Below are positions 1,212 through 17,323 of a DNA stretch of 22,873 bases, one piece after another (the first letter of the stretch is position 1; every line of letters starts with the position of its first letter). The notes under the pieces are model-generated. The model saw only the letters and a program-made list of their open reading frames with translations. It was not told the DNA's origin and did no database searches. The translations under genes and the position numbers were made by a program. The DNA comes from a virus. The stretch is taken from the UHGV virus genome UHGV-0188094; one strand, written 5' to 3'.

Positions 1212-1428
1212 AAAAATTCATATGCCCCTGACCACCTGGCAATGGATGTGGAGGAGCAGTAGCAATCAGTGCGGGTGTCACAATAAACCGGACCACTGTT
1301 TCATGGGTAACAAAAGTGCTCCCGCAGTTAATATTTTGGCACTGGCAGTAACGCTCTTTGGTGCTTTCAGTTACTTGAAAACTGCTCCTTGTGTGTGCCG
1401 CATGACCACATTTTGGACAATTCATCAT
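1210..1428 (-). CDS. ogr: Ogr/Delta-type zinc-finger late transcription activator (about 72 aa)
   Basis: MNCPKCGHAAHTRSS...TKERYCQCQNINCGSTFVTHETV...PHPLPGG closely parallels phage P2 Ogr (C-x2-C ... C-x4-C zinc finger, HPLP tail). Start chosen at the internal Met pair rather than the ORF-track start at 1473. Confidence 0.85.
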   Translation of the reverse strand: MMNCPKCGHAAHTRSSFQVTESTKERYCQCQNINCGSTFVTHETVVRFIVTPALIATAPPHPLPGGQGHMNF

Positions 1429-1496
1429 ATCCAGATCCCTACCTTTGCTATCAGAATCATTGTAATGATACACATAATATCAATATTGAGAACACT

Positions 1497-2597
1497 TTAT
1501 TCCATTTCAAGATCATCAATCCTCACTTCAAGCTCCAGACTGGTCGTAAAACCGTTATCCGGGCTGACGGTATGCGTCAGAGTCGTAATGGTCCATTCCG
1601 CATCATCTATCGGCTGTTTAAAACCACTGACTTTCACTGGCATTTCCGTGTAGAGATCTGCCCGACCTTCCGCCAGTTGTAGCGAGAATGACGCAACGCC
1701 GCGTTGCAGGCGTTCCCACTGCATTTTCGCTGCCCGTTCAGCGTTACTCCGATTAGCATAGGTGCGATTAAGTACCAGCACGTTTTCATCCGTACCCACC
1801 AGGTAATCGCCCTGCTTCGCTTCCGGCTCTTTCTTCTGCTTCTTAGTCCTGCGCTTACGCTTCACCGTAGTGCTTTCTTTCTTCGCGGGTTCGCGGGTAT
1901 GCAACCAGCTGGCAATTACGCCCGTGTAGGCTCCGCGATCTGCCAGGGTAAAGCGGTGGCTGTCGCCGTCCTTGCGTGTGATAGTGATCACTGGCAGAGG
2001 TTTACCGCTGGCGCTTTTGCCCTGTCCCTGCCGGATGAATAACAGATTGCCATTTTTCACCGACGCAATAGCACCGTACTGGCGCGCCAGCCGCATCAAA
2101 AAACTGCCGTCACTCTCATTGGTCTGGTCTATATGATCCACGGGCTTATCCGACAGATCTTTACCCAATGCCATCTTCAGTTTGTGCCGCGCAGCTATTT
2201 CCTTCACCACTTCCCCAACGGTGGTCTTGTGCCACGACTTTTCACGGCGGGTATTCAGCGTTTCCCGAAAATCAGCACTTCGCGCCCGGATAGTCAGTCG
2301 GTCCGGTGCGCCAGTGTGTTCAATCTCGTCCACCGTGAATGCCCCTTTCGGGAAAAGCGGCTGCCCCTTCCAGCCCAGCGCCAGCGTAATGACCGCACCA
2401 CGGCGCGGCAGCACTATTTTTCCATCGGCGTCGTCCAGCTCCAGATCAAGCTGGTCCGCTTCAAAGCCCCGGTTATCCGTCAGCGTCAGCCTCATCAGGC
2501 GGTTATCCAGCACAGTGGTGATATCCCTGCCCTCAATACTGATGCTGAATGCGGGAGTTTTGTTGCCTTTGTTAAGCAGTTCAGAGCTGAAATTCAC
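1497..2597 (-). CDS. P2 gpD-like tail protein (late gene D), 366 aa
   Basis: Full-length ORF directly upstream of ogr, as in P2 (D-ogr). GTG start overlaps the gpU stop (GTGA). The gpD identification is from recalled family resemblance plus synteny. Confidence 0.8.
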   Translation of the reverse strand: MNFSSELLNKGNKTPAFSISIEGRDITTVLDNRLMRLTLTDNRGFEADQLDLELDDADGKIVLPRRGAVITLALGWKGQPLFPKGAFTVDEIEHTGAPDRLTIRARSADFRETLNTRREKSWHKTTVGEVVKEIAARHKLKMALGKDLSDKPVDHIDQTNESDGSFLMRLARQYGAIASVKNGNLLFIRQGQGKSASGKPLPVITITRKDGDSHRFTLADRGAYTGVIASWLHTREPAKKESTTVKRKRRTKKQKKEPEAKQGDYLVGTDENVLVLNRTYANRSNAERAAKMQWERLQRGVASFSLQLAEGRADLYTEMPVKVSGFKQPIDDAEWTITTLTHTVSPDNGFTTSLELEVRIDDLEME

Positions 2598-3037
2598 GAC
2601 ATCAGCCCTCCCACCGTTTTACTGATATCGCTTAAGGCAGATGTTGCCGTTTCCTGCAGATTATTCAGTTGCGCACTGAGATCACCGAACATATCGGACA
2701 GGGATTCATCCACCCGTTTGAGCGACAGGGTGAACTCAATCCGGCGCGGCATACCGTCGCGGAAAAACTCCGTTTTAGTCTGATTCAGTCCCTCAATCAC
2801 ATACATGCCGTAAATCGTGCCGCTGCCTTCAATCAGAGGCCATGCTTTCCCCTGTTCTGCCATCTGCTCCAGTGCCAGCAACGACAGCCTGCCGCCTGTT
2901 ATCTCCGGCATAAGAACACCGGAAAGCGTCAGCATGTCGTTTTCCGGTCCCAGAAACTGCGTGGACGGACGTCGGTTTACCCGACTGTTTGCCGCATGTC
3001 GCCAGCTGCGTTGATACTGCAGTTGTCTTCCTGCCAG
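2594..3037 (-). pseudogene. P2 gpU-like tail protein, 5'-truncated by a deletion junction
   Basis: The frame reads ...QLQYQRSWRHAANSRVNRRPSTQFLGPENDMLTLSGVLMPEITGG... and continues upstream of the ATG at 2935 to a stop at 3050..3052. gpU-like sequence begins near 3025; upstream of that the sequence belongs to the gpN fragment in another frame. Confidence 0.6.
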
Positions 3038-3639
3038 TAGATGGACAGGTTATCCAGACGGGTGATCAGCAGCGCATTCGGCGGGAAGAACGGCGCACGC
3101 ACGGCCTGCAGGCCACCCATGCGTTTCTGGCTGATGATCATATCGGCAGCCAGTTTTTCACTGTTTTCCTGCTCTTTGTTGACCAGCGGGAAATACTTGT
3201 CAGACAACAGTTCACGACCGCAAATCACCACCAGACCGTCATCGTCCTGGTAAACCACGTCGATAAGCTCATTGACGGCATCCATCACCACAGCGTCCAG
3301 GTTGGCATATTCGCCACCTTTCCCGACTTTCACCGCACCCGGAGTGGTTTCACCGCCCGTGGTGGTGCTGCCCATGACGTGATCCGGTGCATCCTCACGG
3401 ATTTTCTGCAGCCAGCCTTTGTTCACATCCTGCAGCAGCGGGTTTTCGCTACGGTTGGAGGTTTTCGCACGCTTCACGCCGTTAAAGCCGATCATGATGC
3501 GGTCCAGTGCCTGACGTTTCACGATGGCGTCACGGATGCGCACCTGGAAATCCTGAAACTTCGCCCACAGATCCAGCTTCGCGTAGGTCAGCACCGTGTC
3601 AAAGTTGGTCTGCTCGCATTTATATTCCACATCGACCAT
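2977..3639 (-). pseudogene. P2 gpN-like major capsid protein fragment (internal portion only)
   Basis: Translation YKCEQTNFDTVLTYAKLDLWAKFQDFQVRIRDAIVKRQALDRIMIGFNGVKRAKTSNRSENPLLQDV...VGKGGEYANLDAVVMDA...ISQKRMGGLQAVRAPFFP...NLSIY matches the middle of P2 gpN. The N-terminal third or so is absent and the last 19 residues are read from gpU DNA in another frame. Confidence 0.7.
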
Positions 3640-3651
3640 CAGGGTCGGATC

Positions 3652-4320
3652 GGTGAAGTGATCGCCCTTGAGCCTGCGCTGGCAAAATACACCCGACGCG
3701 GATTAGACCTGGATACCTACTGGTTTGTGCAATACGGTATGACAACCCAGCCGTATCAGTTCACGAAAGGCAGCATTTTTCATCTGATGGAACCGGATAT
3801 TAATCAGGAGATCTACGGCCTGCCCGGTTATCTTTCTGCCATTCCGTCAGCCCTGCTCAACGAGTCCGCCACGCTGTTCCGTCGCAAGTATTACATTAAC
3901 GGCAGTCATGCGGGCTTTATCATGTACATGACCGATGCCGCGCAAAACCAGGAGGATGTGAACAACCTCCGCAATGCGATGAAAAGCGCCAAAGGGCCGG
4001 GCAACTTCCGCAACCTGTTTATGTACTCACCTAACGGCAAAAAGGACGGGCTTCAGATTATCCCGTTATCAGAAGTCGCAGCGAAGGATGAGTTTCTGAA
4101 TATCAAAAATGTTAGTCGCGATGACATGATGGCGGCACACCGCGTTCCGCCGCAAATGATGGGGATTATGCCTAATAATGTCGGGGGGTTTGGGGATGTG
4201 GAGAAGGCTAGTAAGGTTTTTGTGATAAATGAATTAATTCCTTTGCAAAAACGATTTAGAGAAATTAATGCATGGCTCGGGGAAAAACTTATAGAATTTT
4301 CTCCATATGAGCTTAACTAA
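3652..4320 (+). pseudogene. P2 gpQ-like portal protein, C-terminal fragment (about 222 aa) fused to the gpN fragment
   Basis: Only the last third of the 443-aa ORF-track entry 2989..4320 is real coding sequence (LEPALAKYTRRGLDLDTYWFVQYGMTTQPYQFTKG...RKYYINGSHAGF...); the rest is antisense to gpN. Opposite-strand placement next to N and next to the cos-like site fits gpQ in a reversed P2 map. Confidence 0.55.
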
Positions 4321-4328
4321 AATATTAG

Positions 4329-4358
4329 TTGCCAGTACCGTATTGTTGCTACTGGCAA
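4329..4358. terminator. Hairpin between the convergent gpQ fragment and the ATPase gene (candidate terminator)
   Basis: Perfect 9-bp arms ttgccagta / tactggcaa with a 12-nt loop, flanked by AT-rich sequence. Confidence 0.35.
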
Positions 4359-4369
4359 TTGTAATAAAA

Positions 4370-6379
4370 TTACAAATATGTGTTGCTATGTAGAGATGTG
4401 TTTATTCCATCTTTTATCTCAATTTTTGACGAAGCATACTCATCATTCGCACTATCATCTATATCAAACTCATCTTGTAGATGAAGTGACTCATTTAACG
4501 GTTTATAAAACTCACCCATCATCATTTTGTAATGGGCAGTATGCTCACTACATTCAAATATCTTCTGAAAAACAATTAAATATTTTTGCACAGACTCCGT
4601 ATCTAAATTCATATAAAGATCATCACCTGCAAAATGGGAACCATCATTAATCCATGATACTAAAGATTTAAATATGATTTTTTCATCACCATAAAAATGA
4701 CACTCAAGCTTCCTAATATCCATCCCACCTAATATCTTAAAGTAATTCTCCAAAATCCTTCGCATTGTATTTTGTATAGTATTATTATTAATGTCTGTTC
4801 TTCTCAATTCGCACCAGAGCAAATCATAAGACGTTTTTATTGGGTTTGATTCGCACTTTTCAAGATATGAAACCTTCCCTTTTTTCCTTACAATCCAAAA
4901 AGTCTCCTCTTTCATTGCTTGATTACCGGATCTTTTGGTATTAAAAGTCAACTCTTTATGAAAATAAATATTATGAGTAAGGAATATAATTTGCTTAATA
5001 TTTCCTTCATCCTTACGAACATCCTCCATTAAATCTTTAATCAACGAACTTACAATAAACAGAATATCACTATCTAAACTTGAAATTGGATCATCAAATA
5101 CTACAACACGATCATCTAAAACACCTGATGCATTATCACTCCCTCTAACAAGGCTATAAAAGTACAAAAAAGTGATAAATGTCTTTTCTCCCTCACTAAG
5201 GGTTGTACGAGCATTATCTCCACTATCTCTCACTATCATATAATGCTTTTTATCTTCGGAGGGTTTTAAGTAAAAATTTTTGAAGCCATAAGAGTCCAGA
5301 ATCTTGTTAATTTTTGTAATAGTTGGAAGAGTACTGGTTTTATTAGACTCAATTGCCTCAATAGCCGAAGTATTTAACATTAACTTCTTTTTGTCTTCTT
5401 CTATCCCAGATTTAAGTCCTTGTAACGTCCTATTAAATTTATCAGATTTGCTACGGTAAGAAGTTATTTCAGACTTTAACTCCACCTTTACGATATATGC
5501 CCATATCTGCTTAGAAAGATTACTAGCCTCTACCTTTCTATTACTATGTATTTTGTTATTATTATCTATCAATAGATTTGAATCATTCAAAAAAGAAATA
5601 AAATCATCAACAACTTCACTTAAGTCACTAAAATGAACTGATTCACTTAAAAAATTGCGTTTATTTTTTGCCAATTCAAAATTCTTGTTTAATTCAGATA
5701 ATACTATCTTAGCCTTATCCTCAAACACTTCATAATTTATGAATGGAGATTTAATCGCCCTTATATCATCTATCGCCTTCAAGATATTATTAAGTTGATA
5801 TTCATATTGTAAAACCAATGCATCGATTTCTCTTTTTTTTAACTCATATGTTTTATCAAAATATGATGAAAGATTATCAAATATATTATCATTTACATCC
5901 TGCTGGCAGAATGGGCACTTGGGATTAGATTTATTGAAATATGTTAAACCCTCCTTAACCCAATCACTGTTATTGAGCATTGTAATTAAGTCTGAAACAC
6001 TAACGTCTTTTTTCCCTAGAATACGCTCACTCCAAATTTCCCTACTCAAAATATCATCTATCCCATTGAAGGATGGAATTGTAATTGATACATGTGATGT
6101 CAATTCAGTAGAAAAAACAATTTTTGCTTTCTCAATTAACTCTGCTATTGAGCAAACTTCTGATGTATTATTTTCATACTCAGCCAACACTCTGGCTTTA
6201 AATTTTTCACTACTATTCCTTAATCCCTCAAAAGCCTTTGAGAACACATTGTCATGTTTTACTTTTTGCTTCCAACATGAATCTTTAAAAGATTTTTCAT
6301 GGTCTTCGATTTTTTTAATAACGCCTAATTCATTATCACCACCATCTATTAACTTTTCCTTTGCTATAATAGATTCCAT
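4370..6379 (-). CDS. ABC-type (PrrC/RloC-like, AAA_13-like) ATPase, C-terminal 669-aa part: CPFC motif, coiled-coil insert, LSEGEK signature, Walker B/D-loop, H-loop, and a C-terminal putative effector domain
   Basis: CPFC at aa 155-158; K/E/N-rich predicted coiled coil at about aa 175-380; TLSEGEK (aa 393-399); VVVFDDPISSLD (aa 425-436); FLTHN (aa 466-470). The C-terminal roughly 200 aa contain R540-x3-E544 followed by His 561 and His 582. Very AT-rich compared with the flanking phage genes. Confidence 0.65.
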   Translation of the reverse strand: MESIIAKEKLIDGGDNELGVIKKIEDHEKSFKDSCWKQKVKHDNVFSKAFEGLRNSSEKFKARVLAEYENNTSEVCSIAELIEKAKIVFSTELTSHVSITIPSFNGIDDILSREIWSERILGKKDVSVSDLITMLNNSDWVKEGLTYFNKSNPKCPFCQQDVNDNIFDNLSSYFDKTYELKKREIDALVLQYEYQLNNILKAIDDIRAIKSPFINYEVFEDKAKIVLSELNKNFELAKNKRNFLSESVHFSDLSEVVDDFISFLNDSNLLIDNNNKIHSNRKVEASNLSKQIWAYIVKVELKSEITSYRSKSDKFNRTLQGLKSGIEEDKKKLMLNTSAIEAIESNKTSTLPTITKINKILDSYGFKNFYLKPSEDKKHYMIVRDSGDNARTTLSEGEKTFITFLYFYSLVRGSDNASGVLDDRVVVFDDPISSLDSDILFIVSSLIKDLMEDVRKDEGNIKQIIFLTHNIYFHKELTFNTKRSGNQAMKEETFWIVRKKGKVSYLEKCESNPIKTSYDLLWCELRRTDINNNTIQNTMRRILENYFKILGGMDIRKLECHFYGDEKIIFKSLVSWINDGSHFAGDDLYMNLDTESVQKYLIVFQKIFECSEHTAHYKMMMGEFYKPLNESLHLQDEFDIDDSANDEYASSKIEIKDGINTSLHSNTYL

Positions 6380-6705
6380 TAGCTTATTTTTTCTTCTTTA
6401 AGAGATATTAGTTTCTCTTCATCCTCCTTAAGATCGCTACCAAGGGTAAATACACCTTTAATTTTATCTTGACTAAAATTTCTTTCAACAAAATCTTTAT
6501 TATATACGTAGCTTATTAAAGATATATTATTTTTCCATTTAATCGGACATGTTGGATATTGTTCAGGGTCATTAATAATTTTACTTATAGTTGTTTTACC
6601 TGCACCATTAGCTCCATATAAATAGTTAAATTTAGAAAGTCCATGTAAAAGCTGCGTAGGGCCATTATATGAGCCTACCTTGTCAATAACTACCTCTTCA
6701 ATCAT
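6379..6705 (-). CDS. N-terminal Walker-A part (108 aa) of the same ABC-type ATPase, separated from the downstream ORF by a frameshift (TAATG overlap)
   Basis: P-loop YLYGANGAGKTT at aa 28-39; RBS GAGGA upstream of the ATG at 6705. The stop TAA shares its last A with the ATG of the 669-aa ORF. One extra A in the A6 run (6387..6392 on the plus strand) would fuse the two into a single ORF of about 778 aa. Confidence 0.6.
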   Translation of the reverse strand: MIEEVVIDKVGSYNGPTQLLHGLSKFNYLYGANGAGKTTISKIINDPEQYPTCPIKWKNNISLISYVYNKDFVERNFSQDKIKGVFTLGSDLKEDEEKLISLKEEKIS

Positions 6706-6840
6706 CCTCTAATCCTCAAAAAACAGATTAATCCTATCAAATCAATGATAATAGAAGACATTACTTACCTAATTACAAGGTGATCATTTATACAGCTGTA
6801 AATAAATCAGGCTAATCATCTATTTGTCATAACGCGCGCT

Positions 6841-6859
6841 CGTATCCCCGCCACGCCTG
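6841..6859 (-). other. cos-like site (186-type cohesive-end core), inverse orientation
   Basis: The reverse complement of 6846..6857 is GGCGTGGCGGGG, which equals the first 12 nt of the 186 cohesive end as I remember it (GGCGTGGCGGGGAAAGCAT). The downstream bases diverge. Confidence 0.45.
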
Positions 6860-6901
6860 CCCGCTTTATGTAGTGGTTTTCATGCACCTGCATGATCTAC
6901 G

Positions 6902-6926
6902 CAAAAGCCCGCCAGTTCTGGCGGGC
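6902..6926 (-). terminator. Rho-independent terminator for the leftward A / tum-like / DinI-like transcript
   Basis: On the minus strand: stem GCCCGCCAG ... CTGGCGGGC followed by TTTTG (plus-strand aaaagcccgccagttctggcgggc). Confidence 0.65.
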
Positions 6927-7061
6927 CTTAGCAAAAACGATCCTCAAACGATCATGCGATCTCATGCGGCATAGACATGCACTACAGAGCTAACGCCTCG
7001 CAAGGGCTCGTTGTTCAACCTTGCTGACGCCAGAAGCAAGTTCAGACGCCAGCAACGTTTC

Positions 7062-7295
7062 TTAATGCAGCCAGCTGTCGTCTTCCCACACCTTCTGCAT
7101 AATTTTCATCACTTGTTTTCTTTCTTCGTCCAGTTGCAGTCCGGTTAGTTCCACACCGTTAGAGCTACCTTTGCGAATGCGAATTACCGTTTTGGGATAC
7201 AGGGGGCGCAGATTGCGGTAAAGCTCGGATTCAAGGGCGTCCAGGGTAGACTGGCTAATCTTCTGCTCTTTATCGATCATTATTTCAATGCGCAT
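7062..7295 (-). CDS. DinI-family protein (77 aa), as in the SOS-induced Tum/DinI modules of 186-like phages
   Basis: MRIEIMIDKEQKISQSTLDALESELYRNLRPLYPKTVIRIRKGSSNGVELTGLQLDEERKQVMKIMQKVWEDDSWLH follows the DinI pattern (MRIE..., hydrophobic core, C-terminal W and acidic tail). RBS GAGGTG lies upstream of this internal Met. Confidence 0.75.
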   Translation of the reverse strand: MRIEIMIDKEQKISQSTLDALESELYRNLRPLYPKTVIRIRKGSSNGVELTGLQLDEERKQVMKIMQKVWEDDSWLH

Positions 7296-7305
7296 AAAAG
7301 TCACC

Positions 7306-7494
7306 TCAGCTGATGACATCCATTGAGTGGTTGTATTCGTGGGTTCTGATTTTTGCCATGAGTTCATCAGTCAATTCAGAAACCCACTGTAGAGCCAGCC
7401 CCTTCTCTTCATCACTACACTCACTAGCCGCTACAAGCTTAAGAAAAAAATCAATGCGCTGGAGCTTCAAAGACTCCAAAAAATAGTCCTGCAT
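7306..7494 (-). CDS. Small hypothetical protein (62 aa) immediately downstream of a LexA box; possible Tum-like antirepressor partner
   Basis: ORF starting MQDYFLESLKLQRID... with RBS GGAGG 6 nt upstream of the ATG at 7494. Position matches the SOS-regulated right-end operon of 186. Confidence 0.5.
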   Translation of the reverse strand: MQDYFLESLKLQRIDFFLKLVAASECSDEEKGLALQWVSELTDELMAKIRTHEYNHSMDVIS

Positions 7495-7535
7495 CTTTCC
7501 TCCTATGACACCACACGCAATACTGTATGTATAAC

Positions 7536-7555
7536 CACTGTTTATATTTACAGTA
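7536..7555 (-). promoter_or_regulatory. LexA (SOS) box overlapping the promoter of the tum-like / DinI-like operon
   Basis: CTGT-N8-ACAG with an AT-only spacer (cactgtttatatttacagta), about 45 bp upstream of the 62-aa ORF start. Confidence 0.6.
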
Positions 7556-7647
7556 TATAATAATCTTACTGATGTAAAACGTTTTTTTACATTCATCAGC
7601 CTGATATGCCTGGTATTATTAAGAGCACGAATTGTTAACCCGCGTAA

Positions 7648-10062
7648 TTAATACAGGTTCCGCCACTGATCATCTTCCTGCAAACGCTGGTTCCGATAGA
7701 AGATACGCAGGCCTGCTCCTGACGGAATACTGCCTCCGCGAAGGAGTAAATCGATCTCTTTCTCGCTGCCATCAAATCCTCTGGACTTCAGCTCATACAC
7801 GAGCTGCAGTCGCTGATGGTCTGTAATTCGCTGTTTGTAGTCTTTACGCCGTTTCGGTTTCACCAGGCGTAACCTTGCTGCCAGTTCCCGGCGCTCTTTT
7901 TTGCTCATACTGTGCAGGTAATCGTGCAACTCCTTGTCATCCATGCTGGTAATGTCCGTTCTGGGGTCCCCATCAGCTGATTTATCTTTCTCCTGTTGGT
8001 TCAAATTTTCAGCAAGGGGACAGTTATTGCCACGAGTCCAAGGGGCGCAAGCGCCCTGGTCGGCTGCCGCCTCCTGAACGTCAACGGCCTTACGAACCAT
8101 TTTCCACTTCACTGCATGAGTGCAGATCTTGCCCTCTGCAATGGGTGACCAGATGCCATAAATACGAATGCCGTGATCGCCATAGGCGGTCGGCTCTTCG
8201 TTGATTTCATAAGCGGTTCTGATCAGGTGATATTTGCGGGGAACCAGTACGCCGCCCTGCTTCATGATGTAGGTGGCAAAACAACCAGCATCAGCAGCAG
8301 CCAGGATTGCATCAAGGCGCGGGTTATCCAGTACCGGCGCACCTGCTTTTTTGTCCCCCTGTTGCCTTGCCGCCTGACCAGCCAGCAATCGCAGTTCACG
8401 GTAAGCCTGACGCCCCGGAATGCCAAAGAAGCGGAATTGCTGAACACGATGCAGAGACGCCCAGGCATTAACGTATTCAGCATTATCACGCAGGGATTTC
8501 CCCGTTTCCTTGCTGATCTCGCCAGCCAGACCACGCCCGTCAATGTTCTTACTGATGTATTTCGCGATGTAGCTTGTTGGCGTACCTTTGCGCGGGTTAA
8601 TCAACTCAGACTTAAAGCGCGGCCCAGTGTTATTGCCCAGCTCCTCGCGGTCTTCACGGATGGCAAACTTACGCAGTAATACAGTGATGGCGCGGCGGTC
8701 TTTTTTGCGCATAAAACACAACAGGTGCCAGTGAACTGTACCGTCATGATGCGGCTCAGCCACCCGCACGCCATACCAGCGCAATCCGGCTTTGTGCATC
8801 GCCTTACGAAATGCAGCAAACATGCCGACCAGGTAATCACTACTTTGTCTTACCGTCGCATTTGTCCAGGTTGGGTTGGGCCTGCCGTTATTTAGCGTGG
8901 AATGGAAACGTGACGGACAGGTGATGGTGTAGAAAACGGCACAGTCACTGCGCATTTCAGCGATAAGCTCCAGACCTTTAACACAGGCCATCATCTCATT
9001 GCGGCGATGCGCCGGGTTGCTGCTGCTGGCGTTTACCACATCTTCCATATCCAGCGTGTCACCGTCTTCGTTCACCAGTTCATGAGAACGGAAAAACTCC
9101 AGCGACTTACGGCGCTGCTCACGTTTATGCATCACGGCTTCATAGCTGACATAGGGAGATGCTTTTTTGCTGACCAGACAGACAGCACGCAACTGCTCTT
9201 CCCGCCATTCGCAACGCATCTTCCATAATTTCCTATACCACCAGTCGGCGCACAGCATACGCGCCAGCGAACCCGGAATGAGTTCATAGGGCACGGGTTT
9301 ACGGCGGTTTCTTTTCCGACGGAGTTGCTCAAACGCAGGCGGGATGACATCCAGTCGCAGGGTTTCTGCTGCCACCTTTTCCCATGTCTTGCGGATTTCT
9401 TCTGGCTTAACATCATCGGTGGCGTACAAATCACCACAAGCGGCATCAAGACACATGCTCATATGCGCAGCGACAAGAGTAGACAGGCGTTTCACCTGAT
9501 CCTGACTCATTTCAGGCAGGATCAGCAGGCCGTCCAGCCCTTCATGGCTTGCCATAAAGCGAAAAGAAGTGGATAGCTGACTCTCGCGTACATGCTCCAG
9601 TCGTTCCAGACATGGCTTAATCGTCTCACGCAAATAGCGGGAATAAGCCTTTGGCCTGCCCAGGCTGCTGAAGTATTCGATACGTTGCATCAGCGGCTTG
9701 CTGATGTGGGTGGGCTGGGCGCTGACATCTGCCAGAATGACCATGTCTGGGTTAAAACGCTGCTGCTCATGCGCCAGCTTTGCCCGACTAATGAGCTTAT
9801 CCTGCTCCATTTCGCGCTGGACAGGATCACGGGATTCATTAAAGAAATAACGCTCCCAGACCTGATCACTCAGTGCCTCACGGCGCAGCAGTTCCTGCTC
9901 GTTATCGGCAGCGTACAGAGTGATCAGGTTTGAAAGCGCAGAAACCGGCGCAACTTCCGCCGGGTCCAGATAAGGGTTAATGGCCTTTTTCGGGCTGTTC
10001 CATGAGAACGATGCGGAAGCCTCGTTAAAGCCGCAGCAGTTGTTCATATCGGCATGGTTCAT
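7648..10062 (-). CDS. P2/186 gpA-type replication initiation protein (rolling-circle endonuclease), 804 aa
   Basis: Large ORF in the position of gene A downstream of the lysogeny-switch genes. Identification is from recalled family resemblance and synteny. Its ATG overlaps the stop of the upstream Dam-like gene (ATGA). Confidence 0.8.
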
Positions 10063-11018
10063 GCACGTACTCCGTACACGGCAGAACTATCCACGCCACG
10101 CGAATAATCAAATCCCACCCAGCAGCGCGGCCCGGAAACAGCGATGATTTCTGTTGCAGATTTACTCTCACCAGCTGCTACGCCGATGCTGCGTTTTGCC
10201 TTGATGTAGTGGTGAGTAAAATTGCGATACAGCGAACGGATCAGGGATGTGTCACTGTTAGAAATAATGACCGGATGTCCTTCTGATGACCGATGTTCAA
10301 GAACGGATGCCAGGTGATACTGGTCATCTTCAGTGAAGCCGTCAGTGTGATAACCGGAAAACGTGCCGTCATACGGCGGATCGCAATACACCACATCCCC
10401 CGCCTTCAACATCGCCAGCGTTTCATCAAAGCTGGCGCAGATAAACGTTGCCCGCTGGGCTTTTTCTGCAAATGCGCGAATTTCTTTTTCAGGAAAATAC
10501 GGATTTTTATAATTACCGTAGGGAATGTTGAAATGCCCGCTCTTGTTATAGCGACATAAACCACGGTAACCGTGACGATTGAGATACAGGAAATATACCG
10601 CTTTCATGAAATCAGTAATTTCAGTTGAGTAATTAAACTCCTGCCTTATGTTGTAATAAGCCACCTCCCTGTTTGCTTCCTCAAATAAAGCTCTGGCGCG
10701 AGATATAAACGATTCACAATCAGCAGCAACCTTTTTATAGAGGTTGATTAAATCAGGATTAATATCCGCAACAAGATAGCTGGGGTAGTGGATCTCCTGC
10801 GCTTCGTTCTGGATTGCTTCAGCGGTCACACGCAGCAGTTCTGCCGCTTCGACGTGGTTTAGCTGGCGGGATGTGATATGACACGCAAGACTATCAAGGC
10901 GGGCAGCCATTGCTTCAGCCCTTGCCCGGCGTTCTTCCAGACGAGCCTCTGTCAGTAAAATATTAAGCCCTGCGTCATCCGGTCCGATTTTAGTCGTGAG
11001 GGTTTCAATATTACGCAT
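10059..11018 (-). CDS. Dam-like N6-adenine DNA methyltransferase homolog with a replaced N-terminus that lacks the AdoMet-binding motif I
   Basis: The region [15 protein letters not shown]...[36 protein letters not shown]...[17 protein letters not shown]...PVIISNSD aligns to E. coli Dam from about residue 50 onward, including the DPPY catalytic motif. The first roughly 85 aa are Ala/Glu-rich helical sequence with no FxGxG or W-GGK motif. Start taken at the ATG at 11018 (RBS AGGAGA). Confidence 0.7.
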
Positions 11019-11085
11019 AATCAATTCTCCTGAATTTAGATAAAGGGATGCCCGGCGGGTTTACGCCATTAATTTCATTAGCTGG

Positions 11086-11427
11086 TTAATTCGGCATGGT
11101 TAGCCGTCTGGGAAATAAGCTCACCACTGCACGAAAATGATTCATTGCTTTAATCAACTCCCGCTTTTCGTCAGTGGTCAGCTCATTAATGCTGATGCTA
11201 TGACGTTCAGCTGGAATTTTTGCCATAAAGAATATGGCAGCCAGTGCCCGTTTATTTTGTTCGCTATTAATATCCCGTGGATCACGCATATCTTTAATAA
11301 ACCGCTCAAGCTCTGACTCAATATTAAGACCAAAAACTTTCGCTCTTAATTCCGCAATGTGATTAAGTCCATTCAGGCGTTCACCGGGGCTTAATGGAAC
11401 AGTCGCCGCAGCGCCTTCAATAGCCAT
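11086..11427 (-). CDS. Hypothetical phage early-region protein (113 aa)
   Basis: ORF with RBS GGGGGA 4 nt upstream of the ATG, in the early rightward operon between cII/fil and A. Confidence 0.5.
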   Translation of the reverse strand: MAIEGAAATVPLSPGERLNGLNHIAELRAKVFGLNIESELERFIKDMRDPRDINSEQNKRALAAIFFMAKIPAERHSISINELTTDEKRELIKAMNHFRAVVSLFPRRLTMPN

Positions 11428-11591
11428 TTGTTCCCCCGTTTTTTCGTTGATAGTTCTGCCAACAATTCATCTTGCGAACGGCACGGATGCCAGCGTTTAC
11501 CATCCTCACCCATGATCCAGCCGTGACCGTAGTGCATTGCCGGACTTTGTTTTACCAGCAGCGATGCAAATGATGGTTCTTTCGTCAGCAT
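11391..11591 (-). CDS. Small early-region protein (66 aa), at the position of 186 fil
   Basis: Internal Met (MLTKEPSFASL...) with RBS GAGGTG; starts 8 nt after the cII stop. Overlaps the next ORF by 37 nt in a different frame. Function is assigned by position only. Confidence 0.4.
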   Translation of the reverse strand: MLTKEPSFASLLVKQSPAMHYGHGWIMGEDGKRWHPCRSQDELLAELSTKKRGNKWLLKALRRLFH

Positions 11592-11598
11592 AAGCACC

Positions 11599-12108
11599 TC
11601 ACAGCAAACCGAATGAAGCACCGAGGCCAGTCACGGTATCAACTGCACTCGCCATCGCAGGATTAGCCTGTAAACGGGCCTGCAATGAAACAGCCGCCAG
11701 CGCCATCAGTCGTGTAACAGAGTTAATGCTGCTGATCGCATCACGACGGCCTGCACTGGTTTTTACATCGCCAGAAACCGCACCTGCCGCAACACGCCCG
11801 ATCTCTGCGGTTGCACTCATGACGTAATGTGGCAGTTTCTCTTTTGCTACCTCATTAATCGGTACACATGGCAGGCAGTGAATCTGTGCCAGAAAACCAT
11901 CTATCAGCGTTGAGTCTTCTGTCAGATCGGTAAGCAGCCAGATTTCTGGCGCATTGAGCTGATGCGGTTGATCTGGGTTGAGTTTGTTTCGCAGTGTCTG
12001 AACATTCATTCCTGCACGTTCTGCCAGCTTCGCCATATTGTGATGTAGTGCAAAAGCTCTACAGGCTTCATCAAAATGCGGGTGTTTGGAAATCTTATAA
12101 TCAAACAT
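11599..12108 (-). CDS. cII: 186 CII-like transcriptional activator (169 aa)
   Basis: Same length as 186 CII; N-terminal HTH region ...AKLAERAGMNVQTLRNKLNPDQPHQLNAPEIWLLTDLTEDSTLIDGFLAQIHCLPC...; sits after apl as in 186. Confidence 0.8.
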   Translation of the reverse strand: MFDYKISKHPHFDEACRAFALHHNMAKLAERAGMNVQTLRNKLNPDQPHQLNAPEIWLLTDLTEDSTLIDGFLAQIHCLPCVPINEVAKEKLPHYVMSATAEIGRVAAGAVSGDVKTSAGRRDAISSINSVTRLMALAAVSLQARLQANPAMASAVDTVTGLGASFGLL

Positions 12109-12140
12109 GCTACCCCCTTAGAAAGTTCTCATAATTGAAC

Positions 12141-12383
12141 TTACTTACCAACAATGACGCGGAAGTTGGAATGACCGAGGGATTCACGGACCTGATCGGT
12201 TTTGTACATTAAATAACGCAGGCTTACGCGGCCTTTGTTTTTTTCTTTCTTGACCATGTATTTAGCAAGCTGACCATGGTGAATTTTTTGATACACGGAG
12301 CCGCGGGAGATACCTTCCCATTCCGCGAACTCAGCAGGCGTTGCCATCTCTTTTGGTACACGAATTGAAATATCAGTACTCAT
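12141..12383 (-). CDS. apl: Apl/Cox-type excisionase and switch regulator (80 aa)
   Basis: Small HTH protein (ATPAEFAEWEGISRGSVYQKIHHGQL), first gene of the operon divergent from cI, as with 186 apl and P2 cox. Confidence 0.65.
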   Translation of the reverse strand: MSTDISIRVPKEMATPAEFAEWEGISRGSVYQKIHHGQLAKYMVKKEKNKGRVSLRYLMYKTDQVRESLGHSNFRVIVGK

Positions 12384-12499
12384 AGTGCAGTATCTCTTAG
12401 TTTGGTTTCGTTTTATCTTGTTTTATGTGGTTTGGTTTTGCTTTTCAAACCATAAATGGATATTAGGATCACTTTTTATATACGTCAAGAGGTTTGATT
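12384..12499. promoter_or_regulatory. Divergent promoter/operator region of the lysis-lysogeny switch (pR/pL analog)
   Basis: 116-bp intergenic region between the divergent apl and cI genes, with iterated ggttt/gttttg motifs. Individual promoter hexamers were not resolved. Confidence 0.5.
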
Positions 12500-13132
12500 A
12501 TGAGTTTAATAAAGGCGGGAAATGATAGTGGTGGGCGCGATGCAATTAACAGGCTTATTAAGGCTTACAACTTCAGCTCACGACAGCAGCTCTGCGAACA
12601 TCTGGAAGTATCAAAAAGCACTATGGCTAACAGATACTTAAGGGATAGCTTTCCTGCCGAATGGGTAATTCAATGTGCCCTTGAAACAGGAGCTTCCCTT
12701 CTATGGCTGGCTACTGGTCAAGGAGATATGTATGCGTGTGAGAACGAAGAAACAAATCTCAAAAATGAACCTCCTGTCACTGTAAGACCACTTTCTAAGA
12801 TCGTTGCTCCTAGCATCAAACGTGTTGAACTGAAGAACGGCGAACTGCAGCCAAGTGATGAAATTCTTCTTGATAGCAGCCTGCTCGATGGTGACTCATC
12901 CAACGCTTTATTTGTTAAAACAGCTAATAATAGCTTTGTAGTGGATACGTCCGTTAAACAAGTCAGTAATGGCTTCTGGTTAGTCGATATGGACGGAGTT
13001 AAAAGCATCGTTAAAATTGCGCGCATACCCGGAAACAAAATAGTAGTTAACCAAGATGACACTTCATTTGAATGTTCTGTAGATGATGTGGAAGTCGTAG
13101 GACGTGCAGTCAAAGTAATCAAGAACCTCTAA
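12500..13132 (+). CDS. cI: CI-type immunity repressor, two-domain (186 CI-like), about 210 aa
   Basis: N-terminal HTH (SSRQQLCEHLEVSKSTMANRYL...) resembling P2 C and 186 CI, plus a C-terminal domain. ATG at 12500 is preferred over the TTG at 12494 because of the RBS AAGAGG 7 nt upstream. Co-oriented with and just upstream of int. Confidence 0.7.
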   Translation: MSLIKAGNDSGGRDAINRLIKAYNFSSRQQLCEHLEVSKSTMANRYLRDSFPAEWVIQCALETGASLLWLATGQGDMYACENEETNLKNEPPVTVRPLSKIVAPSIKRVELKNGELQPSDEILLDSSLLDGDSSNALFVKTANNSFVVDTSVKQVSNGFWLVDMDGVKSIVKIARIPGNKIVVNQDDTSFECSVDDVEVVGRAVKVIKNL

Positions 13133-13135
13133 CTT

Positions 13136-14155
13136 ATGACCATCAGAAAACAGCCGAACGGAAAATGGTTGTGTGAGTGCTATCCCAATGGACGCAATGG
13201 TAAGCGCGTGCGTAAGCAATTTGCTACCAAAGGCGAAGCCATTGCGTTTGAAAGCTTCACAATGGAAGAAGTGAACAAAAAACCGTGGTTAGGAGAAAAG
13301 GATGATCGGCGACACCTATCAGAATTAATTGAGCTTTGGTATTCCCTGTATGGTCAGACACTCGCAGACCCCAAGCGCCTCATGGCGAAACTTAGAATTA
13401 TCTGTAATGGTCTAGGCGACCCCATCGCCTCAGAACTGACAGCCGGTGACTTTACGAAATACCGCGAAGCACGGTTAAAAGGTGAAGTACGAAATGAAGA
13501 TGGGACGCTTATGTCGCCCGTTAAGCCCCGCACGGTAAACCTCGAACAGCGCAATCTATCATCGGTGTTCGGTACATTAAAAAAACTAGGACACTGGTCA
13601 GCACCAAACCCGCTGGCAGGACTTCCAACCTTCAAAATTGCCGAAGGTGAGCTGGCTTTTCTTTCCATGGACGAAATCAAGCGCCTGTTGGCTGCATGTG
13701 CTGAATCTCAAAGCCCCAGCTTATTAATGATTGCCAAAATATGTTTGGCTACCGGCGCACGTTGGAGCGAAGCCGAAAACCTGCATGGCCACCAAATATC
13801 GAAATACCGAATTACTTATATAAAGACAAAAGGTAAGAAAAACAGAACAGTACCGATATCACAGGAACTATATGACGAACTCCCCAAGCACAGAGGGAAG
13901 TTATTCACGCCATGCAGAAAAGCCTTTGAGCGTGCAGTAAAGCGGGCCGGTATTGAACTTCCGGAGGGGCAATGCACCCATGTATTACGTCATACATTCG
14001 CCAGCCATTTTATGATGAACGGCGGAAACATACTGGTACTACGCGATATTCTGGGCCATGTGGATATAAAAATGACGATGATTTATGCCCACTTTTCCCC
14101 TGACCACCTAGAAGATGCGGTAACAAAAAACCCACTGTTTAATTTAAAATGGTAA
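13136..14155 (+). CDS. int: P2/186-type tyrosine integrase (339 aa)
   Basis: N-terminus ...GRNGKRVRKQF..KGEA.AFE... and C-terminal motifs ...ATGARWSEA..., ...HVLRHTFASHF..., ...GHVDIKMTMIYAHF parallel P2 Int (R, H-x-x-R, catalytic Y). Confidence 0.85.
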   Translation: MTIRKQPNGKWLCECYPNGRNGKRVRKQFATKGEAIAFESFTMEEVNKKPWLGEKDDRRHLSELIELWYSLYGQTLADPKRLMAKLRIICNGLGDPIASELTAGDFTKYREARLKGEVRNEDGTLMSPVKPRTVNLEQRNLSSVFGTLKKLGHWSAPNPLAGLPTFKIAEGELAFLSMDEIKRLLAACAESQSPSLLMIAKICLATGARWSEAENLHGHQISKYRITYIKTKGKKNRTVPISQELYDELPKHRGKLFTPCRKAFERAVKRAGIELPEGQCTHVLRHTFASHFMMNGGNILVLRDILGHVDIKMTMIYAHFSPDHLEDAVTKNPLFNLKW

Positions 14156-15690
14156 ATTTAACGATGAAAAGATTGAAATCAGTTTCCGATGCAGTTATCC
14201 AACTCAGATTAAATGCGGTAAAAGCAAGTATTCAAAGCGTCAATCCAAACGAGTTTATAACACATTGCCTTGATTATAACCTCCAGAAATTTAACAATCA
14301 GCTTGAAATGTTACAACACCTACCATGGGTTGTGAATTTATGCATTAAATGGTCCGCCAGTGCGCTGGGTAAAAAACGGAAATTTAAACATATTGACAGA
14401 CCTGGTGCTGTCAGGTTGCTACAACGAGCATATGAGGAACTAAGTATAATTCCAACTGGTCTGGAAAATATAGACAAAGGGATTAACTTTTTCCTTAGAA
14501 ATACGTTATATCAACAAGGTATTTATCAAAGATTAGATGCTTTAAATACAATTAGCAGACAAGTTTTCTTGTTTTCTTCCTTAGATGACAACAATAGAAT
14601 CAAGCGTAGATTCAAAGAACTTACTGATGTTGATATAAACGATTTTCTAAAACTATCATTTGTGTTAGTATCACTCGTTACCTTACAAGCACCAGTAAAG
14701 AAAATAACAATAGATTCTTTCGCAGCTCTTTACTCCGTAATACCTAAAGATACAATCGAGAAATTTCTGAATACTATATCTATCCCTTACGAAGAACTAG
14801 CTCGGTTTTGCTGTACAAAAGATAATGAGACACCTTTAGTAGAATATTATGCTCCATCGCCTTTCTTAGAAAAACCTTTCATCAAATTCGAAGGAAATTA
14901 TCACCAAATACATACGCAGCTAACTTCGACCAGTATACAAACCTTTATATATGATTTGCTTCGCAGAGATGATGCAGAATCGTTCATGGACAAATTTGGG
15001 CGAGTTTTCGAAAATGCAGTCAACCAGCTATTAGATGAAAGTGGAATTGCTTATATTGCTGAAGGAAATTTAAAAGAATATCTACCTCAAGAGAATAAAG
15101 TTGTAGATTTTCTACTACCTCATGATGAAGCTAACATTTTCATCGATGCTAAAGGTGTTGAGATAAACCAAAAGGGAATGGTTACACTACGACCAGGGGA
15201 TATTTCTGCCAATATAAAAAGCTCCGTATTAAAAACTATAGAACAAGCACACTCAGTAAATAGAGAGCTAATTAAAAAAGGTAACCAAAATTTTTCTTTT
15301 AAAAAAGAGTCCTACATTTTATGTCTTACTTATAAAAATTTATTCCTTGGAAATGGTACATTTCTAAATAAATCCTATGCTAACATCGAAATGAAAAAAA
15401 TCCGAGATAGGCATTCAGAAGAATATCAAATACCTGATGAGAACATTTTCTGCATATCATTTGAGGAATTCGAGTATCTGCTATCTTCTTGCAAGGAATA
15501 CTCAAAACCTGTACATGAGGTACTGCGAGAAGCTGTAGTTAGAAACCAAACACCATCAAGTGCAGTTTTCCTTTTTGCACATCATATCCGTGACTCATTC
15601 CCCAAAATACGTTCATCTGAGATCGTCAGGCTCGCAGGCTTGAGCGAGATCAACCATATCGTTGAACGATTAGAGCAAGCTGGCTCTTGA
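14149..15690 (+). CDS. Cargo protein (513 aa) with a central PD-(D/E)xK-like nuclease motif; function unknown, candidate defense or abortive-infection factor
   Basis: AT-rich ORF whose ATG overlaps the last codons of int. Candidate motif E305 ... VVD320FLLP ... IFID333AK335 (about 15046..15170). No family recognised by eye. Confidence 0.55.
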   Translation: MVNLTMKRLKSVSDAVIQLRLNAVKASIQSVNPNEFITHCLDYNLQKFNNQLEMLQHLPWVVNLCIKWSASALGKKRKFKHIDRPGAVRLLQRAYEELSIIPTGLENIDKGINFFLRNTLYQQGIYQRLDALNTISRQVFLFSSLDDNNRIKRRFKELTDVDINDFLKLSFVLVSLVTLQAPVKKITIDSFAALYSVIPKDTIEKFLNTISIPYEELARFCCTKDNETPLVEYYAPSPFLEKPFIKFEGNYHQIHTQLTSTSIQTFIYDLLRRDDAESFMDKFGRVFENAVNQLLDESGIAYIAEGNLKEYLPQENKVVDFLLPHDEANIFIDAKGVEINQKGMVTLRPGDISANIKSSVLKTIEQAHSVNRELIKKGNQNFSFKKESYILCLTYKNLFLGNGTFLNKSYANIEMKKIRDRHSEEYQIPDENIFCISFEEFEYLLSSCKEYSKPVHEVLREAVVRNQTPSSAVFLFAHHIRDSFPKIRSSEIVRLAGLSEINHIVERLEQAGS

Positions 15691-15819
15691 TTGCACAATT
15701 GCAAATTGGCGACAAATTGGCGGCAGAGCATTAAAAATGCGTAAAATAAACAAACACCAAATAATACTAATATGCTGTTTTAAAACATAAATATATGTTT
15801 TTATCATAATAATAATGGT

Positions 15820-15868
15820 ATGTAGGAATTTCGGACGCGGGTTCAACTCCCGCCAGCTCCACCAAATA
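15820..15868. repeat. attR of the P2/186-type prophage and attL of the downstream island: second copy of the 49-bp ssrA 3' end
   Basis: Identical to 533..581. Confidence 0.85.
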
Positions 15869-15898
15869 TTGATGTACTGAAGTTCAGTAAAGTCTACT

Positions 15899-15933
15899 AA
15901 GCCCGCACAGCACAAGCTCTGCGGGCTTTTTTA
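15899..15933 (+). terminator. Rho-independent terminator after the second ssrA 3'-end copy
   Basis: Stem gcccgcacag...ctctgcgggc followed by TTTTTT (15927..15932). Confidence 0.6.
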
Positions 15934-16030
15934 CGTCTATTGTAGTCTAGTGAGAATTGCTGAGAACTACGAGTTATGGCACCCTGAATGGGACCCACGA
16001 AGATGGGTCCTAAAATCGAGGGTCCCAAAC

Positions 16031-17260
16031 ATGGCCAAAATCGCTAAGAAGCTCACTGACACTGAAATCAAAAGCACCAAACCTGCCGAAAAAGAGGTTA
16101 ACCTTTTTGACGGCGATGGTTTGCTGTTGCGAATCGCTCCCCTGGCGAAGGGAGGGAAGAAAAATTGGTATTTCAGATATGCAGTGCCTGTGACCAAAAA
16201 GCGAACTAAGGTGAGCTTAGGAACCTATCCTCACCTTACACTTGCGAAGGCACGAGCTTTACGTGATGAATACTTGTCGTTGCTTACAAATGGTATAGAC
16301 CCCCAAGTTCATAACAACCAAAAAGCCAATGCACTGAAAGATGCCACGGAACATACATTTCAAGCAGTAGCCAAGAAGTGGCTTGATGAGAAAGTCAAAA
16401 CGTCAGGCATCTCCCAAGATCATGCTAACGACATCTGGCGAAGCCTAGAGAGAAATATCTTTTCCACATTGGGTGATACCCCAATTAAGGAGATTCGCCC
16501 TAAAATGCTTAAACAGCATTTAGAACCCATAGAAAAACGAGGTGTCCTTGAAACACTTCGCCGCATCATATCCCGCCTGAATGAAATTTTCCGCTATGCA
16601 GCAACAGAAGAACTCATAGAATTCAACCCGGCAGACAACCTGGGGCAACGGTTCAGCAAGCCAAAAAAACAGAATATGCCAGCATTACCCCCTTCCGAAC
16701 TCCCTCGCTTCTTGGTTGCTCTAAACAATGCTTCTATCCGTTTGGAAACAAGGCTACTGATTGAGTGGCAACTTCTCACATGGGTTCGCCCAGGTGAAGC
16801 TGTTCGCACAAGATGGTCAGATATTGATATTGAAACTGGCATGTGGAACATCCCGGCGGAGTTTATGAAAATGAAGAAGCCTCACAAAGTTCCACTGAGC
16901 AAAGAAGCTTTGCGAGTTTTGGATTTAATGAAAGTCATCAGCGGGCATAGAGAGTGGGTGTTCCCCAGTATCAAAGCTCCACTCAATCACATGCATGAAC
17001 AAACAGCTAATGCGGCCATAATCCGTATGGGTTTCGGAGGTGAGCTTGTAGCTCACGGTATGCGATCCATTGCTAGAACGGCTGCTGAGGAGTCTGGCAA
17101 GTTTAGGACTGATGTCTTAGAAGCCGCCCTTGCCCACTCGAAGAAAGATGAAATAATTGCAGCCTACAATCGTGCAGAGTATCTCACTGAACGGGTGGTT
17201 CTCATGCAATGGTGGAGTGACTATGTTTCGTCTCAAAAATGCAAAGTTATTGCCGCATAA
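16031..17260 (+). CDS. P4-family tyrosine integrase (IntA/SlpA-like)
   Basis: MAKIAKKLTDTEIKSTKPAEKEVNLFDGDGL..., ...DIWRSLERNIF..., ...VPLSKEALRVLD..., ...HGMRSIARTA..., ...AYNRAEYLTERVVLMQWW are P4-integrase hallmarks. Start taken at the ATG at 16031; the ORF track's upstream GTG at 15950 would run into the terminator. Confidence 0.85.
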   Translation: MAKIAKKLTDTEIKSTKPAEKEVNLFDGDGLLLRIAPLAKGGKKNWYFRYAVPVTKKRTKVSLGTYPHLTLAKARALRDEYLSLLTNGIDPQVHNNQKANALKDATEHTFQAVAKKWLDEKVKTSGISQDHANDIWRSLERNIFSTLGDTPIKEIRPKMLKQHLEPIEKRGVLETLRRIISRLNEIFRYAATEELIEFNPADNLGQRFSKPKKQNMPALPPSELPRFLVALNNASIRLETRLLIEWQLLTWVRPGEAVRTRWSDIDIETGMWNIPAEFMKMKKPHKVPLSKEALRVLDLMKVISGHREWVFPSIKAPLNHMHEQTANAAIIRMGFGGELVAHGMRSIARTAAEESGKFRTDVLEAALAHSKKDEIIAAYNRAEYLTERVVLMQWWSDYVSSQKCKVIAA

Positions 17261-17323
17261 CTCTCCCATGATGGATTAACTATCTTGATTTAGTTAAAGA
17301 ATTAATAATCACACCATTAACCT

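Follow-up and report, generated by a model that had tools for sequence, protein, structure and literature searches.

In the P2-like phages, the early operon carries, in this order, a DUF2732 gene, a TraR/DksA-like zinc-finger gene, dam and the replication gene A, each overlapping the next, and the first three are annotated as separate, free-standing genes in Salmonella phage RE-2010 and Escherichia phage Cartapus. This intact locus is carried by 1,219 complete E. coli genomes and spans 1,315 bp in all of the matches listed. Its dam gene, directly upstream of gene A with an ATGA overlap, encodes a protein of 285 aa (Ecol_AZ147 WP_078232680.1, RE-2010 YP_007003503.1, Cartapus YP_010664013.1), and the WAGNK motif of this protein is invariant in 20 intact relatives. 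The free DUF2732 proteins (PF10809, PHROG 128; WP_032434758.1, RE-2010 YP_007003501.1) comprise 77 aa and receive only incidental mentions in the literature. A known relative of the phage methyltransferases is E. coli Dam (EcoDam; PDB 2G1P, 4RTJ and others), a D12-class enzyme of the alpha-group, whose residues 1-46 reportedly form an N-terminal loop bearing K9, W10 and K14, together with the F35-x-G-x-G39 loop.

The window analyzed here, a stretch of 22,873 nucleotides from a virus genome (UHGV-0188094), departs from this organization. Directly upstream of gene A lies a chimeric ORF (10059..11018, minus strand; 319 aa followed by a TGA stop) in which DUF2732 is joined in frame to Dam residues 44-285. 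Codons 1-77 (10788..11018, minus strand) correspond to the entire upstream DUF2732 gene minus its stop codon, so that all 77 residues of the free protein are present, and the ribosome-binding site and start codon are those of DUF2732. The start codon is ATG, at 11018, and the Shine-Dalgarno sequence AGGAG, read from the sequence 8 nt upstream of it (11027..11031, minus strand), is also kept in RE-2010 and Cartapus. The Dam-derived part (10062..10787, minus strand) provides residues 78-319, and the TGA stop overlaps the start codon of gene A as ATGA (10059-10062), in line with the translational coupling proposed by the first-pass annotation. Gene A itself (7648..10062, minus strand) encodes a replication endonuclease of 804 aa (PF05840, Phage_GPA).

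The two parts of the protein are clearly delimited by profile searches. DUF2732 (PF10809) matches residues 1-76 over its full length (75/75 profile positions, E 1e-27, Pfam), as does PHROG 128 (1-75/75, E 3e-33), while MethyltransfD12 (PF02086) matches residues 75-278 over profile positions 40-253 of 253 only (E 1.8e-60, Pfam). Such strong matches of both families within one ORF might suggest an established, evolved two-domain DUF2732-Dam family rather than a recent accident. This reading is exceedingly improbable, as the architecture was found in this exact sequence only, among the matches listed, and the unfused parental state differs from it by 1 nt. Indeed, a search of 5.8 billion proteins gave no second protein combining PF10809 and PF02086 among the matches listed, the remaining ones being either Dam proteins of 282-288 aa with both WAGNK and EPFAGS or free DUF2732 proteins of 77 aa.

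Comparison with the intact relatives explains the fusion at base resolution. Aligned with RE-2010 and Cartapus, the window presents a single clean gap of 355 bp, which opens at the final base of the DUF2732 stop codon, takes in the TraR/DksA-like zinc-finger gene completely and closes after codon 43 of dam. As the last base of the stop codon was deleted, TAA became TAC and DUF2732 is read through into Dam, gaining 242 C-terminal residues by comparison with the free protein. Alignment with the intact relatives places the junction at this TAC codon (Tyr78; 10785..10787, minus strand), with a 2-nt microhomology, TA being common to the DUF2732 stop and to Dam codon Tyr44. The parental breakpoints, read in L015, are GGAGATCCACTA|ATGG and GGAGACGGAGTA|CCCC; they lie at short imperfect direct repeats (GGAGAnnnAnTA), identical at 8 of 12 positions and both ending in the common TA. 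An in-frame result had one chance in three. We also considered, and rejected, the possibility that the 355 bp were a discrete mobile element or intron, because their ends lie within the stop codon and within a dam gene that more than 1,200 genomes carry intact. Judging from this alignment, the fusion is no chance feature, since it reflects a deletion of exactly 355 bp when compared with the many intact relatives. The recombination chimera formerly suggested is thus described more exactly as an illegitimate deletion, and the N-terminal helical segment then called unrelated is indeed foreign to Dam, but is the complete product of the DUF2732 gene, normally located two positions upstream.

What the Dam part has lost and kept can be read from its alignment with the phage and host enzymes. 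By comparison with P2-like Dam, residues 44-285 are present as fusion residues 78-319, whereas residues 1-43 (MSTILKWAGNKTAIMSELKKHLPAGPRLVEPFAGSCAVMMET[D/E]) are missing and replaced by 77 foreign residues; the lost codons include those for WAGNK (motif X) and EPFAGS (motif I), both missing from the Dam-derived part of the fusion. Homology to EcoDam (E 1.4e-58) covers residues 47-270 of that enzyme and takes in ADIN, the R124 hairpin and DPPY, and nothing in the fusion corresponds to residues 1-46. It opens at fusion residue 78, equivalent to EcoDam residue 47, and not around residue 85 as first proposed, while the presence of DPPY within the homologous region was correctly recognized. Motif II is found as VAD85IN, aligned to the equivalent of EcoDam D54, the target-recognition region as GL154CR156YN...FNIP166YG, aligned to EcoDam L122, R124 and P134, and motif IV as D213-P-P-Y216 (window positions 10371-10382).

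No FxGxG-like, WxGxK or EPF motif was found in the six-frame translation of 10700-11100, and tblastn gave no match anywhere in the window to the lost Dam residues 1-43 or to the lost zinc-finger protein. The absence of the N-terminal AdoMet-binding region and of any AdoMet motif in another frame, noted from the sequence beforehand, is borne out by these searches and by alignment with phage and host Dam proteins. From a mechanistic point of view, the missing segment of Dam would have comprised the N-terminal loop with WAGNK, strand beta-1, the glycine loop with EPFAGS (motif I) and the helix after it; together, these elements probably make up the core of the Rossmann-type sheet and the AdoMet pocket on the methionine side. 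Owing to this loss, the fusion would be unable to bind AdoMet normally; it would probably be poorly folded and would not methylate GATC. An inactive protein, already suspected by the first-pass annotation, would thus be the most likely consequence of the lost motifs. DUF2732, being complete, could nevertheless remain functional.

Conversely, motifs II and IV to VIII, DPPY included, are intact, and one may imagine a still-active GATC methyltransferase in which the DUF2732 helices or another element replace the AdoMet pocket, or in which the missing part is complemented in trans. We consider this highly unlikely, given that a sequence resembling motif I or X occurs in no frame, that Dam residues 1-43 are encoded nowhere else in the window, and that the fusion lacks FxGxG, the AdoMet-binding region which defines D12-class, Dam-type enzymes (PMC3036652). 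Structure prediction may point in the same direction, at low confidence: AlphaFold2, run on the fusion with 19 Dam homologs trimmed to the homologous part, suggested a helix-turn-helix-like hairpin for DUF2732 (H16-50 and H55-74) that lacks both beta strands and a glycine loop. The mean pLDDT of the fusion model was 50.8 and its pTM 0.43, and the control, intact Dam P0001 with an equally shallow alignment, was likewise poor (pLDDT 56.2, pTM 0.55); for intact Dam, beta-1 would fall at residues 28-30, within the segment deleted here.

The fusion is not restricted to the window. In the assembly collection, 47 blocks contain a protein identical to it; among the 24 contigs in which it was read, some belong to NCBI draft assemblies of E. 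coli and others to ENA assemblies of gut metagenomes. Ten sister loci that were fetched match the window at 99.8-100% identity; as they were found by an exact-protein look-up, the 1-3 differences from the fusion observed in two of them (L006 and L012) are synonymous by construction. Scans for the junction, using a 49-mer or a 29-mer (CAGGAGATCCACTACCCCAGCTATCTTGT), gave no occurrence in 5,426 complete E. coli genomes, 50,697 phage records, the GTDB species representatives or the JGI metagenome contigs. Absence from all of the complete E. coli genomes examined, with nothing more specific in its favor, could suggest a sequencing or assembly artifact, a contig having been collapsed or mis-joined. 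However, independent isolate assemblies from NCBI (GCA_012439725.1, GCA_000703925.1, GCA_019373645.1, GCA_019366805.1 and GCA_014937545.1) and several ENA metagenome assemblies show the same junction and protein, and the junction was also found in one IMG/VR contig; this independent recurrence in related strains already refutes the artifact, to which we attach next to no probability. On the strength of the sequences, the fusion is real and clonal, because the exact protein occurs in many assemblies and the fetched loci are 99.8-100% identical, and it seems not to extend beyond a single lineage.

The closest intact counterpart is found in E. coli Ecol_AZ147, where a sister prophage remnant, located at ssrA, retains all three genes. 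Around these genes, the remnant is 99.8-99.96% identical to the window; its dam gene lies at 580547-581404 of NZ_CP018995.1. The fusion differs from this sister copy by 1 nt in 960, with no difference from the free-standing DUF2732 gene and 1 nt from the intact dam gene, while the other three intact P2-like Dam alleles compared show 5-8 amino-acid differences. So small a distance from the sister allele indicates that the deletion is very recent, and no substitution has occurred on the fusion side since the split.

The genetic context is that of a decaying element. The window contains a gutted P2-like (Peduoviridae) prophage of E. coli adjoining ssrA, and its best complete-genome match covers 74% of the window. 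The complete P2-like late-gene set (portal, terminase, scaffold, capsid, tail) is not present: what is left consists of a portal fragment of 220 aa, a capsid fragment of 220 aa (profile 90-289 of 327), gpU, gpD and ogr. The sister loci bear further, independent deletions, and the remnant exists in several structural variants that carry the fusion allele (L007, L008). A promoter-like site, TTGACG-17-TAATAT, lies in the CI/Cox intergenic region (12460..12488, minus strand; a consensus match only), and from there to gene A the minus strand shows no terminator-like site. By analogy with the gene organization of P2 and 186, it is likely the early promoter of a cox-cII-fil-DUF5347-fusion-A operon.

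The fusion ORF is, in all probability, a by-product of prophage decay through deletion, and most likely catalytically dead. One 355-bp illegitimate deletion between short imperfect repeats occurred in a prophage adjoining ssrA, within a single E. coli lineage; its in-frame outcome lets ribosomes starting at DUF2732 run into Dam residue 44 and end at the normal dam stop. The fusion would be expressed only upon derepression of the CI-repressed early operon, in an element past making particles, and for this reason would most likely be selectively neutral. Incidentally, and as its sole expected effect, the in-frame junction would let ribosomes continue to reach gene A.

The retained recognition region raises the question of a dead DNA-binding protein exapted for another use, as was also proposed at first. 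Such a protein would bind GATC-like sites through this region and its beta-hairpin, acting as a methylation-independent regulator or blocker, with DUF2732 as a possible interaction module. Indeed, the fusion keeps the target-recognition residues equivalent to EcoDam L122, R124 and P134, the role of R124 in the recognition hairpin is documented, EcoDam can bind non-GATC DNA, and a methylation-independent repression role has been proposed for it (PMC4417163); moreover, the reading frame is kept across the junction, and many assemblies carry the allele. Yet the lack of any fusion-side substitution since the split from the Ecol_AZ147 allele leaves neither time nor signal for adaptation, the allele is single and clonal with no second example in the database searches, and it sits in the repressed early operon of a prophage which is shedding genes through several other deletions. 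Loss of the central beta-1 should, in addition, destabilize the catalytic domain that scaffolds the DNA-binding part. We therefore regard exaptation as unsupported and very unlikely. Very unlikely too is a stable dead fusion which, after derepression, would bind GATC-like DNA independently of methylation, for instance to shield GATC sites or to modulate replication that depends on gene A; DUF2732 would then serve as an extra module. The in-frame junction and the persistence of the allele in L007 and L008 are compatible with tolerance, and in principle also with use of the protein.

Prophage decay has produced comparable chimeras elsewhere. In decaying E. coli P2-like prophages, internal deletions have likewise joined dam to a phage gene, yielding Dam-gpD (P0010, P0011, P0049), Dam-tail-fiber collar (P0072) and Dam-gpA (P0069, P0073) proteins, also named “Dam family methyltransferase” by annotation pipelines. 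By contrast with the fusion described here, which loses the Dam N-terminus, these keep the N-terminus and lose the C-terminus. The fusion is ordinary prophage decay and no new protein type; as one more chimeric ORF from an internal deletion in a decaying prophage, it carries little biological weight. Its records, EFE4631606.1 (NCBI) among others, nevertheless bear the pipeline label [quoted passage not shown] despite the missing cofactor-binding motifs, and surveys of methylomes or orphan methylases that count such entries would over-count for this reason. The intact allele of Ecol_AZ147 and the deleted allele, finally, offer a natural matched pair for the roles of Dam, the TraR-like protein and DUF2732 in P2-like elements.

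The open reading frame at 10059..11018 (minus strand, 319 codons) consists of a complete DUF2732 protein joined in frame to a truncated Dam methyltransferase of the D12 class (alpha group), with no new way of working. Residues 1-76 are a full-length DUF2732 (Pfam PF10809, profile positions 1-75 of 75, E = 1e-27), and residues 75-278 match MethyltransfD12 (Pfam PF02086, E = 1.8e-60) only from profile position 40 on; PHROGs divides the protein likewise, into phrog_128 (function unknown) and phrog_56 (DNA methyltransferase). In a comparison with solved structures of E. coli Dam (2G1P, 4RTJ and others, E = 1.4e-58), residue 78 of the fusion aligned to EcoDam residue 47, and EcoDam residues 1-46 are therefore without a counterpart. 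Dam homology indeed begins internally, as the first-pass annotation had claimed, at residue 78 rather than around residue 85. Of the Dam family features, the protein keeps the match to the profile, motif II, a recognition hairpin and DPPY (residues 213-216), and lacks motifs I and X. FxGxG-like, WxGxK and EPF motifs were absent from all six frames of 10700-11100, and tblastn with the lost segments as query gave no match elsewhere in the window. The earlier reading of a Dam-like protein whose AdoMet-binding N-terminal region is replaced, with no such motif in any frame, is thus borne out, and the lack of both motifs I and X refutes, or nearly so, any residual methylase activity.

The origin of this arrangement was apparent from intact relatives. 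When 9900-11500 was compared with phage records by megablast, 45 of them aligned to 80% or more of the query; the listed ones covering the whole query all did so in two pieces, spanning 1,955-1,956 bp against the 1,601-bp query. In Salmonella phage RE-2010 and Escherichia phage Cartapus, three separate overlapping genes are annotated at this place, encoding DUF2732 (234 nt), a DksA/TraR-like zinc finger (228 nt) and Dam (858 nt), followed by gene A. Alignment of the window with both phages revealed a single clean 355-bp gap in the window and no other, so that the chimera formed by recombination, one of the origins first proposed, took the form of a deletion. It begins just past the TA of TAA, the DUF2732 stop, and extends to just before the C of Dam codon 44 (TAC), converting the stop codon into a Tyr codon and removing the whole zinc-finger gene together with Dam residues 1-43 (MSTILKWAGNKT..LVEPFAGSCAVMMET[D/E]), that is, motif X and motif I, while the Dam sequence past the junction is still in frame.

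A nearly identical parental allele was found among complete E. coli genomes in Ecol_AZ147 (NZ_CP018995.1), which matched the 960-nt fusion gene at 99.9% over a 1,315-bp span. The AZ147 element is annotated adjacent to ssrA, as in the window, in the order GapS1, integrase, CI, Cox-like, CII, Fil, DUF5347, DUF2732, TraR/DksA, Dam, truncated gene A, gpD and ogr. Compared nucleotide by nucleotide, the fusion gene and the AZ147 genes differ at one position, and the flanks are 99.8-99.96% identical. This single difference is an AZ147-specific Glu-to-Lys change at which other relatives match the window; the fusion has thus acquired zero changes since the deletion, and the event is very recent. The parental breakpoints, GGAGATCCACTA|ATGG and GGAGACGGAGTA|CCCC in AZ147, carry an imperfect 12-bp direct repeat (8/12 identical, with a common TA at its end), which is the usual signature of illegitimate deletion by slippage or microhomology.

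The junction itself was rare. A 49-mer, with fewer than 28 nt on either side so that intact alleles could not seed a match, had no match in 5,426 complete E. coli genomes or 50,697 phage records; a 29-mer had none in GTDB species representatives or JGI metagenome contigs, and matched one IMG/VR contig. At least 80% of the fusion gene was covered in 1,219 complete E. coli genomes, and all of those listed matched in two pieces spanning the extra 355 bp. In the assembly collection, the exact 319-aa protein was indexed in 47 blocks. Among the 24 carrier contigs that were read were five draft assemblies of E. coli from NCBI and several gut-metagenome assemblies from ENA, a recurrence that refutes, or very nearly, an assembly artefact. 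Ten fetched loci were 99.8-100% identical to the window, and no complete RefSeq genome covered more than 74% of it. The fusion is therefore genuine but clonal, belonging to one E. coli lineage without a member among complete RefSeq genomes. An established DUF2732-Dam family is likewise as good as refuted: among the top hits of a search of 5.8 billion proteins, in which a diverged fusion would score above Dam-only hits, no second protein carried both domains, and all full-length hits carried WAGNK and EPFAGS.

The fusion lies in a gutted P2-like prophage (about 600-14155) directly after ssrA (tmRNA, 215-577, plus strand), near the window start, with its integrase at 13136-14155. The early and immunity region is intact. 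The late region is reduced to ogr, gpD (1497-2597), part of gpU and two 220-aa fragments placed head to head, of capsid (2977-3639, minus strand, profile positions 90-289 of 327) and portal (3658-4320, plus strand). From this gene content, the element would be unable to form particles. A 160-aa hypothetical gene also lies within the remnant. The cargo slot that follows gene A and DinI holds an AAA_13 ATPase (4370-6705, minus strand). It matched PDC-S06, a candidate defence family in PADLOC, at E = 6e-225, and resembled PrrC more weakly; it is frameshifted into 108-aa and 669-aa ORFs in the window and one sister locus (L003), and intact at 778 aa in three others (L004, L005 and L008). A 513-aa ORF overlapping the integrase gene end (14149-15690, plus strand) had no Pfam or PADLOC (2023) match, and RefSeq annotates its AZ147 equivalent as 'GapS1 family protein' (gapS1). 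Cargo at this position varies in other P2-like prophages; strain 600468, for one, has an anti-phage dCTP deaminase there.

Beyond the prophage integrase, a second island (15950-20878, plus strand) encodes a tyrosine integrase (Arm-DNA-bind_3, Phage_int_M, Phage_integrase), a serine recombinase of 518 aa (Resolvase and Recombinase) and, in tandem, two ParB_N/RepB-like paralogues of 298 aa whose stop and start codons overlap. One of these paralogues is disrupted in L005, L006 and L012. The stretch 20900-22873 is AT-rich, without a long ORF; a 68-aa ORF at 22108-22314 (minus strand, ending ...NGMAESFVKTFKRDYVYV) resembles a C-terminal piece of an IS-type transposase.

Besides the 355-bp deletion, the prophage has undergone at least three large internal deletions. 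Among sister loci, L007 is without the DinI-to-portal stretch, L008 carries an IS1 beside the integrase, and AZ147 has lost the stretch from the 3' part of gene A to gpD. This last deletion, noted in the region 15312-17317 of the AZ147 locus (L015), leaves about 1,038 nt of gene A, now joined to a gpD that is itself shortened, with DUF2732, TraR and Dam intact; the ancestral prophage therefore decays along independent paths in different strains. Other E. coli chimeras of the same prophage dam occur in public databases (P0010, P0011, P0049, P0072, P0069 and P0073), with gpD, a tail-fibre collar domain or gpA as partner; they presumably arose from further prophage deletions, and annotation pipelines name all of them methyltransferase.

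From a mechanistic point of view, ribosomes starting at DUF2732 run on into Dam residue 44 and terminate where dam normally stops, in the overlap with gene A. The fusion starts at an ATG 8 bases past AGGAG and ends in a TGA that shares ATGA (10059-10062) with the start codon of the downstream replication gene A (804 codons), confirming the coupling first noted. The fusion belongs to the cox-cII-fil-DUF5347-...-A early operon, with a promoter-like site upstream, in the CI/Cox intergenic region, and no terminator-like site found in between. The CI repressor gene is intact, and the product would be made only on derepression of the defective prophage.

The segment lost through the deletion holds, in terms of the class I methyltransferase fold, the beta-1 strand at its centre together with the glycine loop and the first helix; a low-confidence model of intact Dam placed beta-1 at residues 28-30. 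These enzymes are defined by the target-recognition domain, DPPY and the AdoMet-binding region, FxGxG (PMC3036652). With its N-terminal Dam elements deleted, the fusion product is therefore expected neither to bind AdoMet in the normal way nor to methylate GATC. Structure prediction, as proposed in the first-pass annotation, gave a mean pLDDT of 50.8 and a pTM of 0.43 from a shallow alignment, against 56.2 and 0.55 for an intact Dam control at equal depth. In this low-confidence model the DUF2732 part is predicted to form a pair of long helices, at residues 16-50 and 55-74, and lacks any strand or glycine loop able to replace motif I. The N-terminal segment is predicted to be helical, as in the first-pass annotation, and Pfam and the intact relatives identify it as the product of the DUF2732 gene. 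The fusion product is probably unstable and most likely selectively neutral, and exaptation as a DNA binder is very improbable. An in-frame junction had one chance in three, and it kept the coupling to gene A.

NCBI names the protein 'Dam family site-specific DNA-(adenine-N6)-methyltransferase [Escherichia coli]'; this name notwithstanding, it should not be classed among functional methyltransferases. Given the deletions and insertions in sister loci and the other dam chimeras, the 355-bp deletion is one of many decay events in this prophage family, that is, ordinary prophage decay with nothing new, and hence of low interest.
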